The notes beneath the pieces were generated by a model. It did no database searches. It saw only the letters and a list, made by a program, of their open reading frames with translations, and had not been told where the DNA came from. From assembly GCA_020696385.1 (NCBI GenBank), contig JAEHCQ010000005.1, forward strand, positions 40,311-104,310: DNA of 64,000 nucleotides, read 5' to 3'. This DNA is from Methanobacteriota archaeon. GTDB lineage: Archaea; Thermoplasmatota; Thermoplasmata; SG8-5; JAGLSY01. Position numbers and translations under genes: made by a program. This document shows, piece after piece, positions 7,556-21,800 of the stretch (positions within the stretch are counted from its first letter, which is position 1; each line of letters begins with the position of its first letter).

Positions 7556-7829
7556 ATGCGGGGAACCGTGTGAACGATATGCCCTTGGCATGATGTTCAC
7601 ATCGTAGGCCATAAACCCAATTCTCGAAGCTTACGTCTTGCTTCGAGTCCAGATGAAACATAATGGTGGGTTTACGGCAACCGTTTACTACTTTCGAATC
7701 CTATAATGAAAAATGCGGGGAACCGGATTTCGCACCTACACTTCATTGCGGTGCTCTCTCGAATTTACAAGTAAATTCTCGATCGAACTTCGTTCGAATC
7801 CTATAATGAAAAATGCGGGGAACCGGATT
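7556..7829 (-). repeat. Two extra copies of the tRNA-Leu 3' end separated by hairpin-rich inserts
   Basis: 37-bp repeat 7693-7729 = 7793-7829; 13-bp copy at 7556-7568; several inverted repeats between them. Confidence 0.9.
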
Positions 7830-7897
7830 CGAACCGGCGAATCACTAAGAACTAGACCCTGAATCTAGCGCCGTTGACCAGGCTTGGCTATCCCCGC
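7814..7897 (-). tRNA. tRNA-Leu(CAG)
   Basis: GCGGGGA/TCCCCGC acceptor stem, CTAGA-TTCAGGG-TCTAG anticodon arm, long variable arm, GGTTCGAATCC T-arm; CCA not encoded. Confidence 0.95.
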
Positions 7898-8007
7898 ATG
7901 GTGTTATGGATAAGCCCTGTAAATTCAAGAGGTTTATAAAATCTTTGATTGGATTGTATAATTTTCCGCCGATATCCTTATATCATGAAATTATCATGCC
8001 GAATACA

Positions 8008-17461: not shown

Positions 17462-17540
17462 ATTCGGTAAACACAATAGTTTTCGGTAAGCCGAAATTTA
17501 TATATACACAATTATCATTAGGTAAATTGCAGGTGAGAAT

Positions 17541-18329
17541 TTGGAAAGCGTGACATTCGCATTATTACTGACCACCATAGCGGGTCTATCCACTGGATTG
17601 GGCGGAGCAGTCGTACTGCTACAGAAAAAGCCCAATAAAACCCTCCTCACCTTTTCCCTGGGGCTTTCAGCCGGGGTCATGGTATATGTTTCTTTCATGG
17701 AGCTTTTACCCGATGCGATCGAGGGCATTGGAGAGGTTGCTGGCATACTGGCCTTCTTCGTCGGAGTTATGTTCATAGCTCTGATCGATGCCCTTCTACC
17801 GAAACAGCTGAATCCTCATCATTTCAGCAGGATCACTGGCAGAAAATGTGAAAAGAAAAAGAAGAGAAGTGAAGCAGAATGCCGCCTAATGAGGGTGGGC
17901 ACCTTCACAGCAATTGCCATAACGATCCATAATTTCCCAGAGGGAATAGCGACCTTTAGCGCGAGCCTGACGGACATCAGACTTGGGATGGTCATTGCCA
18001 TCGCGATAGCCTTACATAATATTCCAGAGGGCATCTCGGTAGCCGCCCCCATATTCGCAGCCACAGGTGATAAGATCAAGGCCTTCAAGTACGCCTTTCT
18101 ATCTGGAATAGCAGAGCCCATTGGTGGTATATTCAGTTTTATCGTGCTCTACAATTTCATGTCTGATTCCCTTTTGGCAGGATTACTGGCCTTTGTGGCT
18201 GGAATAATGATCTACATATCTCTTGATGAGATATTACCCACAGCCCATAGCTATGGCAAGAGCCATGTTGTGCTGGCAGGTGTTATGCTGGGTATGTTCA
18301 TAATGGCAATGAGCTTACTTATGTTGTGA
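17541..18329 (+). CDS. zupT: ZIP-family zinc transporter ZupT
   Basis: HNFPEG and HNIPEG motifs; TTG start after GGTGA. Confidence 0.92.
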   Translation: MESVTFALLLTTIAGLSTGLGGAVVLLQKKPNKTLLTFSLGLSAGVMVYVSFMELLPDAIEGIGEVAGILAFFVGVMFIALIDALLPKQLNPHHFSRITGRKCEKKKKRSEAECRLMRVGTFTAIAITIHNFPEGIATFSASLTDIRLGMVIAIAIALHNIPEGISVAAPIFAATGDKIKAFKYAFLSGIAEPIGGIFSFIVLYNFMSDSLLAGLLAFVAGIMIYISLDEILPTAHSYGKSHVVLAGVMLGMFIMAMSLLML

Positions 18330-18423
18330 ACTGCCAGATATCCTGAAAATTTCCATAGATATTATGCACAAATCTAAACCAAGCTTTTATTATGGGTATT
18401 GCATTCTCGATAAAATTACCAAA

Positions 18424-18498
18424 GGGCGCGTAGCCTAGCCAGGATATGGCGCTAGCCTTCTAAGCTAGAAGCCAGGGGTTCGAATCCCCTCGCGTCCG
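18424..18498 (+). tRNA. tRNA-Arg(TCT)
   Basis: GGGCGCG/CGCGTCC acceptor stem, CTAGC-CTTCTAA-GCTAG anticodon arm, GGTTCGAATCC T-arm. Confidence 0.95.
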
Positions 18499-18503
18499 CT
18501 CTT

Positions 18504-18725
18504 TTATTTTTTTAAGATGCGACTTTATCATTTGATCCCACGCATCTTTTTTATCAAACAAATTTGTAAAAGATTCAGGTAATGAGTTTGATTCGATATG
18601 TTTAGAGGACGCGAGGTGGATGAGAACGGAGTTCGACGAGATTTTTCTGAATATAATGAAGAAAAAGCGAGCAAGACCTGGATGCTGAAAGCAGACAGGT
18701 TGCTGATCCCCTCGCGTCCGCTCTT
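18504..18725 (+). mobile_element. Structured insert downstream of tRNA-Arg, ending in a copy of the tRNA 3' end
   Basis: 18706-18725 = 18484-18503; inverted copy at 18607-18621; modules shared with 634-704 and 7725-7801. Confidence 0.6.
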
Positions 18726-18821
18726 ATTTTATTATCTTAATAAATGCGAAGTGTTGTAAACAAAACACTTATCTATTCTCTTTTGATTACTATACTATAG
18801 TTAATCCAGGGATGGACCTTA

Positions 18822-21800
18822 ATGACCAAAATACTGAACAACCTTATCGTGCTAGTTATTTCAATTGTATTATTATCATCATCATTGACATTTGTTGGAG
18901 GGTTACAGCCTGCTGAAGATATCACACCAGCAGCAGAGCCAGAATCTCCTGGACTTGATTTGTTTGACCCATGGCCGACCTTCACAGGAACGACCGTCTA
19001 CCATTCATGGGATGAGGCAGAGGCCGAGATGCTACAGATCGCTCTGGACCATCCAGACATCGTACAGCTTACCAGCCTTACCAAGACCTGGGAGAACAGG
19101 GATGTCTGGGCCTTCAAGATATCCGACAATCCTACAGTGGAAGAGTCGGATGAGCCAGAGGTATTCTTCAATTCCCTACACCATGCCAGAGAGTGGATGA
19201 CCATCGAGATCGCGCTCTATGCGATCCATTTCCTGACTGACAATTATGGTATAAATGCCACAGTTACCGATATCGTGGACAATCGACAGATCTGGATAAT
19301 ACCTGTCGTCAATCCAGATGGAAGAGTGATCGACAGCCCAGGGGATGATCCAGCAGACCATACAGCTCAACCGTATGGTTGGAGGAAGAATGCCAGGGAC
19401 AATAATGGTGACATGGTCTTCAATGAGGCGGATGATGGTGTGGATCTCAATAGAAATTATGACTGGCTATGGGGATCTTCAGGCCAGCAATCGGATCCAA
19501 CGAACTACCTATATGGTGGGCCAACAGCCTTCTCTGAACCAGAGAGCATCGCGATACGGGACCTTTGCATAGAGCATGATTTTGTCTTTGCAGTTAACTA
19601 TCACACTTACAGCCAGCTCATTCTTTACCCATGGGGCTGGACATTTGAAGATACAGAGGATCATGATCTACTGGTCACTGTCGCATGGGATCTCGAAAGC
19701 AGGATCACCAATCTAGCGGGAAGCGCGCATGATGGTTATGTTCCCGAGCAGGGTGCGGATCTTTACCCCACTTCTGGTGGAACTGATGACTGGATGTACG
19801 GCAATCAGGGTATTCTTTCCTACACCATCGAGGCCTATCCATATTATGACTGGGGTGGCGGCGGACCTGAGAGCAGCGCGGCCATTCAGGAGCCATACGA
19901 CCTTTTCCATCCAAGAGAGGATAAGGTTCTGCCAGTCTGCCAGGATAATCTGCCAGCGATCATTCGATTATGCGAGATCGCTGATAATCCCTTCCAGGTG
20001 ATGGATCATATAGAGATATCCACAGTTGATGAAGAACTGGTCATCGAGAAGGGAACTGGGGATTCAACGACAATTGATCTTCTAAACAATGGCCAGGGAG
20101 ATGGTGACTACACGATAACAACCAGCTCGATAGCTGGCTGGTCGATAACTCCTTCCCCGGCAGCCAACAATATACTGAAAGATCAGACTGTACAGTCAAC
20201 ACTGAGCATCACGGTGCCAGGAGCAGCAACACCCGGTGAATATACCATCTGGGTGAATGTGTCGATGGATACGAATTCCAGCTGCACGGACTCATGCGAG
20301 GTCACCGTCATCGTGCCTTATTCCGATGACGTTGGCGTGGATTCCATATATCCCTTCGAGGAAATGGGGATCTACCCGATGGGCGAGTACCTGATCGATG
20401 GAACTGTCAAGAATTATGGCGAGTTCCAGGTTCCATCCTTTGACACCACCTGCACGATAACCCGATTTGGTGGTGGAACTAATTACAATCTATTCTCGGA
20501 TGACATGGAGAGCGGCATGACCCAGTGGGTGACTGAGGACTGGGATGGCACTCTTACTAATGACTACTGGCATACTGTATCATCCCGCAGCAATTCTCCA
20601 TCCAACAGTATGTTCTGTGGCCCGGCTACCAGCGGCTACACGATATATTCAAATCAATTCCTTACCATTGCTGACCCAATTGACTTAAGGGATGCGGAGA
20701 CCGCGACTCTCACCTACTGGACATGGCATGAGCTTGTGAACGATGGTTACGATGCGGACTTCTGTGTGGTAGAAGGCTCTGTGGACGGTGGCCATACGTG
20801 GAGCTTTATCGACCGCTACACAGGCGATGATATGACATGGAGGGAGCGAACTAATGACCTCACCAATTTCACTGGCTACCCCGAATTCCTGCTTCGATAC
20901 AGGTTCACATCAGACAATATGGATTATGGGGATACAGGTTTCTATTTCGATGACATAAGTATAGACGCGTTCATACCCGGCGAGACCGTGGTATTCGGCC
21001 CCACCATCCAGACCACAAGCGCACCACTGGACACGCAACTTACCGAGGATCTGCAATGGCAATATAACTTCGATCAGAGTGGCACATACAGAGTGTCCAT
21101 GGAGACCCAGTATGGTGCAGATGGCAATACAGCGAATGACCTGTTGGATGTCATATTCGATATAGGCAGCACACACCTGCCAGATTTCACAGGTGTGGAT
21201 GATGTCATCAATATCGGAACTGGGGATCAGCTTGACATTTACTGGAGCGCGGCAAATGATCCGAATTTGCCGATAACCTACAGCCTTTACAGATTTGACA
21301 ATTTACCAAACGAAGCGGAGGTTAACGCTTCGTCCGCCATATGGACTGGCACAGCTCTTTCCTACAGTGATAACAGTGTGACTGCCGGGGAGACCTATTT
21401 CTACATCGTGAGGGCGAGCGACGCCCTCGGCCAGGAGGAATGGAACATGCTGGCAATAGATGGGACACCATCCATTCAGTTATTGTTCCAGGTACAATCG
21501 CCAATGGCTGGCTTCCGCGATCTCAATCAAGATACCTTTGAATCATCCATACAGATTGCGACCAGCCCGGACATAACAGGCCCGGGACAGTATCAGGTCG
21601 GAGGGGCTGATGACCATTGGCTTTCCGAAGTTTATACCAATGCCCAGCAAATGGACGGCACATGGAAATTCAATATCTGGGGACAGATGAGCAATGACAT
21701 GGCCAACTCGAACCTTTATGCAAGGGTTTACAGATACAGCGATGATGGCCTTCTTTTCCAGACCGTACTGGATGATGAAGATACCAGTGCCTTCGCAGGT

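Follow-up and report, generated by a model that had tools for sequence, protein, structure and literature searches.

tRNA genes are classic landing sites of mobile DNA. Among the described systems that come closest to the one reported here, the CTX phage and integron cassettes integrate as folded hairpins, which leaves a native copy of the target, a spacer, an inverted copy, a core, and a direct copy. We analyzed a locus of comparable layout in a 64,000-nt stretch (the window) of contig JAEHCQ010000005.1, from the Methanobacteriota archaeon assembly GCA_020696385.1 (class Thermoplasmata), where the gene for tRNA-Arg(TCT) is followed by an insert carrying a 15-nt segment, GGACGCGAGGTGGAT, that is antisense to the 3' end of the same tRNA. 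We propose, as a plausible but tentative explanation, that this segment is the tRNA-proximal arm of the closing stem of a small noncoding tRNA-end hairpin cassette, which recombines and is probably transcribed. Such cassettes are found at many tRNA genes of an order-level group of uncultured Thermoplasmata, one to three per gene, ~20 to 25 nt past the 3' end and in mirrored form at the 5' end. Their plan consists of an A/T-rich spacer, an inverted copy of the last 10 to 25 nt of the tRNA, one to three hairpins, and a direct copy with a fresh spacer. The full-text literature searches made for this analysis returned no description of cassettes combining inverted and direct tRNA-end copies.

Of known systems, integron attC cassettes and the folded attP site of CTX phage come nearest, with membership in either class failing on the integrase and on the locus-specific arms. 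Similar to attC, the cassettes are imperfect inverted repeats whose distal half is the insertion site, whose target is recreated, whose center is variable, and whose folded strand is bulged, and they stack and lack open reading frames (ORFs). The architecture is analogous, but the arms are specific to each locus rather than built on a common RYYYAAC/GTTRRRY core; they are 10- to 25-nt copies of the neighboring tRNA, no IntI-type integrase lies beside the arrays, the host is an archaeon, and mirror cassettes occur at 5' ends. In the attP of CTX phage and of integrative mobile elements exploiting Xer (IMEX), two inverted sites resembling the target and separated by ~90 nt form a hairpin in imitation of the chromosomal site; the direct-inverted-direct order is shared with the cassettes, and a Xer-type protein is the sole tyrosine recombinase found in the related genome G002. 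In contrast, the target here is a tRNA end instead of dif, and the element is gene-less and ~60 to 220 nt long. Duplicated att sites of archaeal integrative elements (SSV-type, pNOB8-type) likewise show a repeat from the T-loop to the 3' end, an intact tRNA gene, and presence or absence among relatives, whereas the cassettes have no integrase, an inverted copy in their plan, structured cores common to different tRNAs, and a size far below that of known integrative elements. An integrating element has been proposed to disrupt tRNA genes, according to an excerpt of Sugahara 2012 (PMC3293823).

Inverted and direct copies behind tRNA-Arg(TCT)

The genome holding the window (G000) comprises 2.28 Mb in 50 contigs and is 94% complete; ARAGORN called two tRNA genes in the window, Leu(CAG) and Arg(TCT). 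The host gene of the insert, tRNA-Arg(TCT), is intact at 18424 to 18499 on the forward strand and matched Rfam RF00005 with 65.7 bits (18424 to 18498). Behind it, GGACGCGAGGTGGAT at 18607 to 18621 (forward strand) is the sole match in the window even with up to two mismatches permitted. Over its first 10 bases it exactly matches the reverse complement of CCTCGCGTCC, a 10-mer that lies within the tRNA gene (18488 to 18497), inverted at 18607 to 18616, and as a direct orphan copy at 18710 to 18719. Three occurrences on the two strands of the window compare with 0.05 expected, and none of 100 shuffles reached three. Past a one-base bulge (T18617), the complementarity runs on through GGAT/ATCC, and in the outward direction AGAG lies opposite the trailer CTCT with a 2-nt bulge. 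The preliminary description of this locus, drawn up from the letters alone, had claimed an antisense copy with one bulge inside the Arg insert, which is borne out. It had also claimed that this copy could pair with either the orphan copy or the native tRNA 3' end, and both pairings were recovered in a 307-nt fold from the tRNA start, the former in the minimum free energy (MFE) structure and the latter in the centroid.

The ~118-nt cassette (18604 to 18721) is ordered as T-rich spacer, antisense of the tRNA 3' end, three hairpins, and a direct copy of the 3' end with a new T-run, all parts being given on the forward strand. A 20-nt direct repeat, ATCCCCTCGCGTCCGCTCTT, which begins in the T-loop, covers the acceptor 3' strand, and reaches into the trailer, starts at 18484 and again at 18706, a spacing of 222. 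The native copy (18484 to 18503; direct repeat family D2) comprises the T-loop from ATCC onward, the acceptor 3' strand, the discriminator, and the trailer GCTCTT, and the distal or orphan copy (18706 to 18725), identified by the direct repeat and the 10-mer count, has a T-run of its own behind it; this copy forms the end of the cassette and restores the target. The full antisense arm (18604 to 18621) consists of AGAG, GGACGCGAGG, the T bulge, and GGAT, complements the trailer start, acceptor 3' strand, T-stem 3' strand, and T-loop end of tRNA-Arg(TCT), and pairs with 18706 to 18724 in the MFE structure; its assignment also draws on comparisons of own against other tRNAs. Since the inverted and direct copies pair, the single strand is closed by a long stem resembling the duplex of acceptor and T-stem, and with the arm paired to the distal copy in that stem, the antisense is more simply read as a structural arm than as a free guide. 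The antisense pairs in this manner in every cassette that has a distal copy.

Between the two arms lie three hairpins. The small hairpin GAAC-GGA-GTTC (18624 to 18634) appears in the DNA fold and has its four pairs kept in five of five sequences of an RNAalifold consensus; its G002 version, TTCGAAC-AGG-GTTCGA, pairs the antisense T-loop with the 5' half of the sense T-loop. Hairpin H1 (18637 to 18672) is framed by CGAG and CGAGC and has a covarying stem of 7 to 8 bp with the loop C-UGA-N6-UGAAG, a motif kept in eight of the 10 strongest units shown of alignment A3, as well as tandem G.A oppositions at its base and top. Hairpin H2 (18676 to 18701; ACCTGG...CAGGTT with an inner GCTG/CAGC-type stem) was delimited with RNAalifold and by a mosaic pattern of identity, and is an exchangeable module.

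The other tRNA gene of the window, tRNA-Leu(CAG) at 7813 to 7898 on the reverse strand, is followed by two stacked cassettes on the same strand. Cassette 1 (7713 to 7812; covariance-model match of 30.3 bits) belongs to the same core family and begins with GGATTCGAAC, antisense of the T-loop only, in agreement with the reduced complementarity that had been described for the Leu insert. Cassette 2 (7556 to 7712), stacked behind it, has another core, begins with the same spacer and GGATTCGAA, and ends with CGGTTCCCCGCAT. The Arg-TCT unit itself is neighbored by a ZIP transporter gene (17541 to 18329) and the gene of a large Peptidase_M14 protein (from 18822).

The cassette plan across tRNA genes and genomes

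Many tRNA genes of G000 have a copy of their own 3' end within the following 70 to 300 nt, and the inserts behind Arg-TCT, Arg-CCT, Arg-TCG, Lys-CTT, Gly-TCC, Leu-CAG, Glu-CTC, and Ala-CGC align to one plan. It starts with the antisense T-loop/T-stem block GGAT[T/G][C/A]GAAC, a 3-nt turn, and GTTCGA, and proceeds through H1 (between CGAG and CGAGC) and H2 to the tRNA end from ATCC on, so that the core is located between GTTCGA and ATCC, the two halves of the T-loop. A covariance model built from these units and searched in 41 related genomes yielded 19 matches in six of them (seven in G000, eight in G002, and one each in G001, G003, G005, and G012), every one of the 19 with a tRNA gene directly 5' of it.

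The plan is also found with unrelated cores, in the shared order of tRNA, A/T-rich spacer, tRNA-end antisense, hairpins, direct copy, and T-run. Examples in G000 follow Thr-GGT (two in tandem), Gln-CTG, Trp, Glu-TTC, Ser-CGA, and Met, as well as Thr, listed apart from Thr-GGT, where a ~60-nt unit has an exact 10-nt arm. In G012, which belongs to a different family of the same order, tandem arrays occur at Arg-TCT and Arg-CCG, each with two complete units and the visible start of a third, and units are also carried by Phe and two Met genes; at each of the five, the arm exactly complements the final 12 nt of the ARAGORN call and starts 22 to 24 nt past its end. Several 3'-side arms have a one-base bulge at the acceptor/T-stem junction, and the direct repeat usually begins in the T-loop. 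In G031, from another family of the class, two ~95-nt units of two hairpins each lie in tandem behind tRNA-Arg(CCT) (locus L015, C30:7280-7600), and both units end in TCCCCGCGCGT, a copy of the tRNA end.

A core-independent scan, in which a tRNA was counted only if its own end outscored every noncognate tRNA of the same genome, found own-specific direct copies at 15/46 tRNA genes in G000, 11/28 in G002, and 9/19 in G012, and inverted copies at 7/46, 3/28, and 8/19, respectively. The complete genome G033, from another family of the class, gave 0/34 for both and serves as a negative control, showing that tRNA genes do not in general have own-end copies. A search with exact 12-mers from acceptor-specific 3' probes agreed: all 12 matches within 300 nt of a tRNA were cognate and co-oriented, and the other 35 were scattered >1.3 kb away, with ~50 expected by chance as estimated from genome length.

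Whether the arm follows its host tRNA was addressed at the level of both DNA and RNA. In local DNA alignments against the last 14 nt of each host, the own tRNA was the best match for Arg-TCT (in both genomes), Arg-CCG, Gln-CTG (G012), Lys-CTT (G000), and Arg-CCT (G002), and RNA duplex energies added a preference for the own tRNA in Arg-TCG, Arg-CCT (G000), and Lys (three genomes), with His marginal. The preference of Arg-CCT and Arg-TCG is weaker than that of Arg-TCT, Arg-CCG, Gln-CTG, and Lys-CTT. At one extreme, the Arg-CCG arm mirrors even the unusual T-loop AATTCC and the Gln-CTG unit of G012 has an exact 13-nt arm; the G000 Arg-CCT arm has three mismatches. Unrelated cores with host-matched arms comprise Thr-GGT, Trp, Ser-CGA, Glu-TTC, Thr, and Met. 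The suggestion in the preliminary description that the arm covaries with the host tRNA 3' end therefore stands in part: it held for Arg-TCT/CCT/TCG/CCG, Lys, Gln, and others and for the unrelated cores, and did not hold for Gly-TCC, Leu-CAG/TAG, Ala-CGC, and Glu-CTC, where the match is confined to the T-loop/T-stem. Target-matched antisense is accordingly present in several other units and cores, the absence of which had been named as evidence against the idea. The arm is a true antisense and not a tRNA 5' end: what follows its acceptor part complements the T-arm (ATTCGAAC in G002; ATTTGAAC and AATTGAAC types elsewhere) and is no D-arm.

Mirror cassettes precede the 5' ends of Gln-TTG (two genes), Gln-CTG, Thr-TGT, Lys-CTT (two units), Glu-TTC (two loci), Asp, and Cys. 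Their order is a sense copy of the tRNA 5' end, a loop or small core, the antisense, an A-rich spacer of 20 to 28 nt, and the tRNA. The antisense lies at about -34 to -23 on the 5' side, compared with a start at about +20 to +27 on the 3' side. In four 5' hairpins, T8 of the tRNA is replaced by A in the distal copy, giving an A.A mismatch, and the antisense still matches the native tRNA. At tRNAs with 5' cassettes, the GC-rich antisense fills the usual position of the TATA box. At G000 C22:261230-261434, the leader AAAACAATACAATAT and the first 11 nt of tRNA-Lys are repeated in two ~45-nt upstream units.

Folding, turnover, and candidate enzymes

Folded as RNA, 18600 to 18730 reached -52 kcal/mol (z -5.7; 0/200 shuffles equal) on the forward strand versus -44.3 kcal/mol on the reverse strand, and its DNA fold reached -29.5 (z -6.4; no shuffle equal). 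RNAalifold on five units returned 33 consensus pairs, 17 of them with compensatory change. Among non-Watson-Crick oppositions in the model-aligned stems, G.T outnumbered A.C by 24 to 6 in the nine strongest units and by 44 to 13 in all 19, and A.G oppositions (16 and 29, respectively) were located at the tandem G.A positions. When the strands of 22 3' cassettes were compared by MFE, with the aim of telling an RNA from a mirrored DNA activity, the tRNA-sense strand was the more stable in 15 and the opposite strand in six, with one tie. Taken together, these results favor the view that the tRNA-sense strand of the Arg-TCT core family is used in folded form, most simply as RNA. The H1 loop C-UGA-N6-UGAAG with its tandem G.A is what we take to be a kink-loop (K-loop) or kink-turn (K-turn)-like motif, and presumably so is the G012 motif GGCUAUUG...GUGAAGCC; RNAs of this kind bind L7Ae and have tandem sheared G.A pairs beside a 3-nt bulge or loop, a pattern present here at the level of sequence.

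Known RNA classes were compared with the units. Rfam returned no family for the Arg-TCT unit (E up to 10, 17500 to 19500) or for eight other loci (E up to 1), the best weak scores, 13.8 bits for the C/D RNA sR4 and 15.6 bits for permuted tmRNA, being far under threshold. Some archaeal box C/D small RNAs (sRNAs) are linked to tRNA genes, and the units resemble them in the CUGA...UGAUGA/UGAAG loop and in the tandem G.A at the base and top of H1. A box C/D assignment was rejected: the spacers of 23 and 22 nt (7 within H1) compare with guides of ~12 nt, the would-be guides pair mutually, the sR4 score lies below the gathering threshold of 50 bits, and eight other units gave no C/D match. Processing handles that resemble tRNAs (plant mitochondrial t-elements, mascRNA-type) share the mimicry of acceptor stem and T-stem, the lack of D and anticodon arms, and a place beside another RNA, and by analogy RNase P and tRNase Z could cut the cassette transcript; they differ in that ~85 nt replace the T-loop here and that in 5' cassettes a full complement is paired with the tRNA 5' end, unlike in a tRNA. 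The Rfam search for mascRNA matched best on the real tRNA only (18.7 bits versus a threshold of 42.5). Inspection of the closing stems by eye found single-nucleotide bulges only and no bulge-helix-bulge splice motif.

Presence and content of the cassettes vary between close relatives. In the sister genome G003 the Arg-TCT site is empty, with only the tRNA, a T-run, and the ZIP gene, and G002 has the cassette at this locus and lacks the ~90-nt module B (18507 to 18597, forward strand), a dispersed double-hairpin repeat inserted in the T-rich spacer, outside the cassette plan, that was delimited by comparison with the G002 ortholog: query positions 1 to 91 and 173 to 308 match G002 back to back, and 84 to 174 match many sites in G000, G001, G002, and G003. 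The module reads AAGATGCG...CGCATCTT, then ATCAAAC...TTTGATTCGATA, with many copies in these four genomes. Occupancy differs between G000 and G002 (e.g., Gly-GCC, Cys, and Tyr are filled in G002 only). H2 is 47% identical between the Arg-CCT units of the two genomes, while that of the G000 Arg-CCT unit is 87% identical to the G000 Lys unit and that of the G002 Arg-CCT unit 84% identical to G000 Arg-TCT, a mosaic that shows the inner hairpin modules to be shuffled. The G002 tRNA-Arg(CCT) gene itself (locus L030, C11:413150-413249) has an anticodon-loop intron that its G000 ortholog lacks, and is mislabeled Ala(AGC) by ARAGORN. The Arg-TCT unit is identical at 102/118 positions between G000 and G002 without an indel (13.6% divergence), compared with 78/119 fourfold-degenerate sites of the adjacent ZIP gene (34.5% divergence); on these figures the unit is either constrained or recently homogenized.

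Tyrosine recombinases (PF00589) gave four matches in G000, one XerA-like, two on contig C1, and one fragment by tRNA-Glu(TTC) at the end of contig C47, and a single XerA-like match in G002; apart from the C47 fragment, none of these lies near a cassette tRNA in either genome. The fragment (C47:171707-172245; 32 bits), on the opposite strand ~100 nt past tRNA-Glu(TTC), is possibly the edge of a conventional integrated element. The Y1 HUH transposase family (PF01797) has one match each in G000 and G002 and is found in 22/41 relatives, with no match in G031 (92% complete), though two tandem cassettes stand there behind tRNA-Arg. In G000 the sole Y1 gene (C50:1231-2357) adjoins two tRNA-like genes of 87 to 88 nt, with anticodon GAA and a long variable arm, in a ~480-bp tandem duplication, and in G002 (C1:16359-17144) it lies ~350 nt from a similar tRNA-like gene. 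For a miniature element of IS200/IS605 type (PATE) or a REP, one would expect its hairpins to flank the transposase gene too, and insertion beside a fixed target of 4 to 5 nt with no duplication. The surroundings of the G000 gene (C50:900-3000) hold module-B-like sequence and these odd tRNA-like genes, not the cassette core. Repetitive extragenic palindromic (REP) sequences and bacterial interspersed mosaic elements (BIMEs), with their REP-associated tyrosine transposases (RAYTs) of the Y1 HUH type, resemble the cassettes as short strand-specific hairpin repeats accompanied by a single-copy Y1 gene in G000 and G002; however, REPs are fixed in sequence and lack target-derived arms, and the G031 cassettes occur with no Y1 match. 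Module B fits a REP better than the cassette does.

Searches for reverse transcriptase (PF00078) and Cas1 (PF01867) found neither in G000 or G002. A casposon, considered for its long target duplication at tRNA ends, was rejected on the lack of Cas1 in these genomes and of terminal repeats at the insert ends, and a retro-element or primer-binding site on the lack of PF00078 and because the copies are followed by the gene trailer (GCTCTT), not CCA. As a relic of a conventional att site, the insert has the expected flanking direct repeat of the tRNA 3' part (20 nt, at 18484 and 18706), but neither an integrase gene nor a fragment of one lies in or beside it; the insert is 222 nt, its longest ORFs are 48 to 53 amino acids, and the G000 PF00589 matches are on C47 and C1. 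A miniature inverted-repeat transposable element (MITE) would account for terminal inverted repeats (arms of 13 nt with 92% complementarity, I7), but these are identical to the neighboring tRNA end; the class was rejected since the flanks TTTAGA and GCTCTT differ with no target duplication, and all 19 model matches lie behind tRNAs, not at unrelated sites. Behind tRNA-Pro(GGG) of G000, a ~7-kb insert (C48:108012-115108) is bounded by a 42-nt direct repeat of 8 nt of tRNA and 34 nt of trailer; tried as an autonomous partner, it contained no antisense copy of at least 9 nt.

Competing explanations and the significance of the cassettes

According to the explanation we tentatively propose, cassettes would be gained, lost, and stacked through recombination at the repeated end of the tRNA gene, with each insertion regenerating that end, and would be retained because the folded tRNA-sense strand is put to use, most likely as a K-turn-type small RNA. 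The acceptor-like closing stem would need the arm, and could give the small RNA tRNA-style ends. Recombination at a repeated end explains the cognate-only rule, the stacking, the presence or absence among relatives, and the regenerated target, and selection on the folded strand explains the covariation, the strand bias, and the slow divergence. Several observations weigh against this explanation. The long closing stem is not universal, since own-specific pairing past the T-loop/T-stem is absent from the Gly, Leu, Ala-CGC, Glu-CTC, and His units (His being marginal); the stem-opposition counts come from a model-fitted alignment and include orthologous pairs; and the strand bias is family-specific, with 2 versus 4 in G012 alone and 6 versus 5 among 5' cassettes. 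The K-turn/K-loop label follows from resemblance to a consensus, in units that match no Rfam family, the T-run between tRNA and arm should halt tRNA transcription, and the slow divergence could reflect recent exchange and not selection. Finally, recombination at a repeated end leaves unexplained how one core family came to have arms for at least nine tRNAs.

The fold may instead matter in DNA: a single-stranded hairpin mimicking the tRNA gene end would be swapped with the gene by a recombinase of folded strands, as in attC and CTX attP, leaving direct, inverted, and direct copies and a regenerated target. The stacked arrays, the direct repeat usually starting from the T-loop, the z of -6.4 of the DNA hairpin, the recurrent 1-nt arm bulges, the A.A at position 8 of the 5' hairpins, and the family strand bias are all compatible with such a site, which we nonetheless consider rather unlikely. 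Candidate enzymes exist in the XerA-like protein (the sole PF00589 match in G002) and in the Y1 HUH gene of G000 and G002, and an excerpt of a review describes archaeal XerA as binding stem-looped att sites weakly (PMC8371274). No enzyme is tied to the cassettes, however, and G031 has them with no Y1 match; as the arms differ at every tRNA, a recombinase that reads sequence would not fit. The conserved tandem G.A and CUGA...UGAAG look more like RNA-protein motifs, and arms for new tRNAs are left equally unexplained. To our knowledge, no excised form is known for an element of this length (~135 nt). In line with the base-pairing-guided target recognition or effect on pre-tRNA processing suggested in the preliminary description, the antisense might also act as a guide, pairing with the native tRNA gene, pre-tRNA, or tRNA to direct insertion, processing, or modification to the cognate tRNA, with the distal copy a partial anti-guide or merely a duplicated target. 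Target pairing is used by IS608 and IS110, and in Pyrobaculum a C/D guide RNA makes Cm56 in the T-loop. At Trp (17/19 positions matched by eye, no direct copy), Gln-CTG of G000, and Thr-GGT, little or no distal copy is present and the native end is the best partner; the G002 arm complements the native T-loop (GGATTCGAAC), which the orphan copy is missing; the G012 arms are exact 12-mers in a fixed register 22 to 24 nt past the tRNA call; the antisense of four 5' cassettes matches the native T8 where the distal copy has A8; and the centroid fold pairs the arm with the native 3' end. Against these stand the lack of a guide-RNA architecture (the C/D spacing fails, and the best Rfam C/D score is 13.8 versus 50 bits), the lack of a nuclease or recombinase encoded in or beside the unit, the occupation of the arm by the distal copy in the MFE structure, and the loss of the tRNA-specific part in several units, which together make a guide quite improbable in our judgment.

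Equally doubtful is a neutral by-product, in which insertion of the core, whether through break repair, template switching at the palindromic T-arm, or a transposase, copies the target end both ways and leaves a functionless antisense to decay. In its favor, the plan is shared by unrelated cores and by both ends of tRNA genes, which speaks for a mechanism and not for common descent; many units (Gly, Leu, Ala; Arg-CCT of G000) have lost or degraded the acceptor-specific part of the arm; and the self-complementary T-loop TTCGAA sits at the switch point between antisense and sense segments. Decay fits poorly with 13.6% divergence in the unit versus 34.5% at fourfold sites, with the excess of G.T over A.C, with the compensatory pairs, and with the regular position (about +20 to +25, or -34) and length of the arm, and we know of no mechanism that gives both direct and inverted 12- to 25-nt copies of a target. 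A degenerate duplicate of tRNA-Arg, with the segment as its acceptor 5' strand, or a chance inverted repeat is exceedingly improbable: GGACGCG does resemble the tRNA 5' end GGGCGCG and the four helices are laid out like a cloverleaf, but the arm runs on as T-stem/T-loop complement, no tRNA was called there by ARAGORN or Rfam, and three occurrences were observed versus 0.05 expected. A tRNA or tRNA pseudogene at 18600 to 18725 was rejected on the same grounds, the only Rfam tRNA match being that at 18424 to 18498 and the arm continuing as T-arm antisense.

Returning to the recombining and probably transcribed cassette, the arms for new tRNAs that it leaves unexplained, along with the fixed distance and register, leave room for a mechanism that copies the target in both orientations and for the guide idea. 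A more speculative view, which we think unlikely but worth stating, is that the cassettes represent an undescribed class of element whose insertion copies the tRNA end both ways at a ruler-like ~22 to 25 nt, yielding K-turn RNAs with exact antisense to their own tRNA, and so an RNA-guided system acting on individual tRNAs or tRNA genes in recombination, processing, or modification. In the distal copy the core is placed exactly at T-loop position 58/59, so cassettes could also give rise to split tRNA genes and noncanonical T-loop introns in archaea. The route by which tRNA introns arrive is described as open in an excerpt of a 2026 preprint (10.64898/2026.10.13.758758).

Here, we describe lineage-wide, structured, turnover-prone cassettes at up to about half of the scanned tRNA genes per genome. 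They provide a countable halfway stage from a tRNA gene with a mobile element beside it to one that is interrupted, and point to a mechanism of insertion or maintenance beyond known integrases, casposases, and transposases. If transcribed, they would make up a new K-turn small-RNA family in which complementarity to individual tRNAs is built in.

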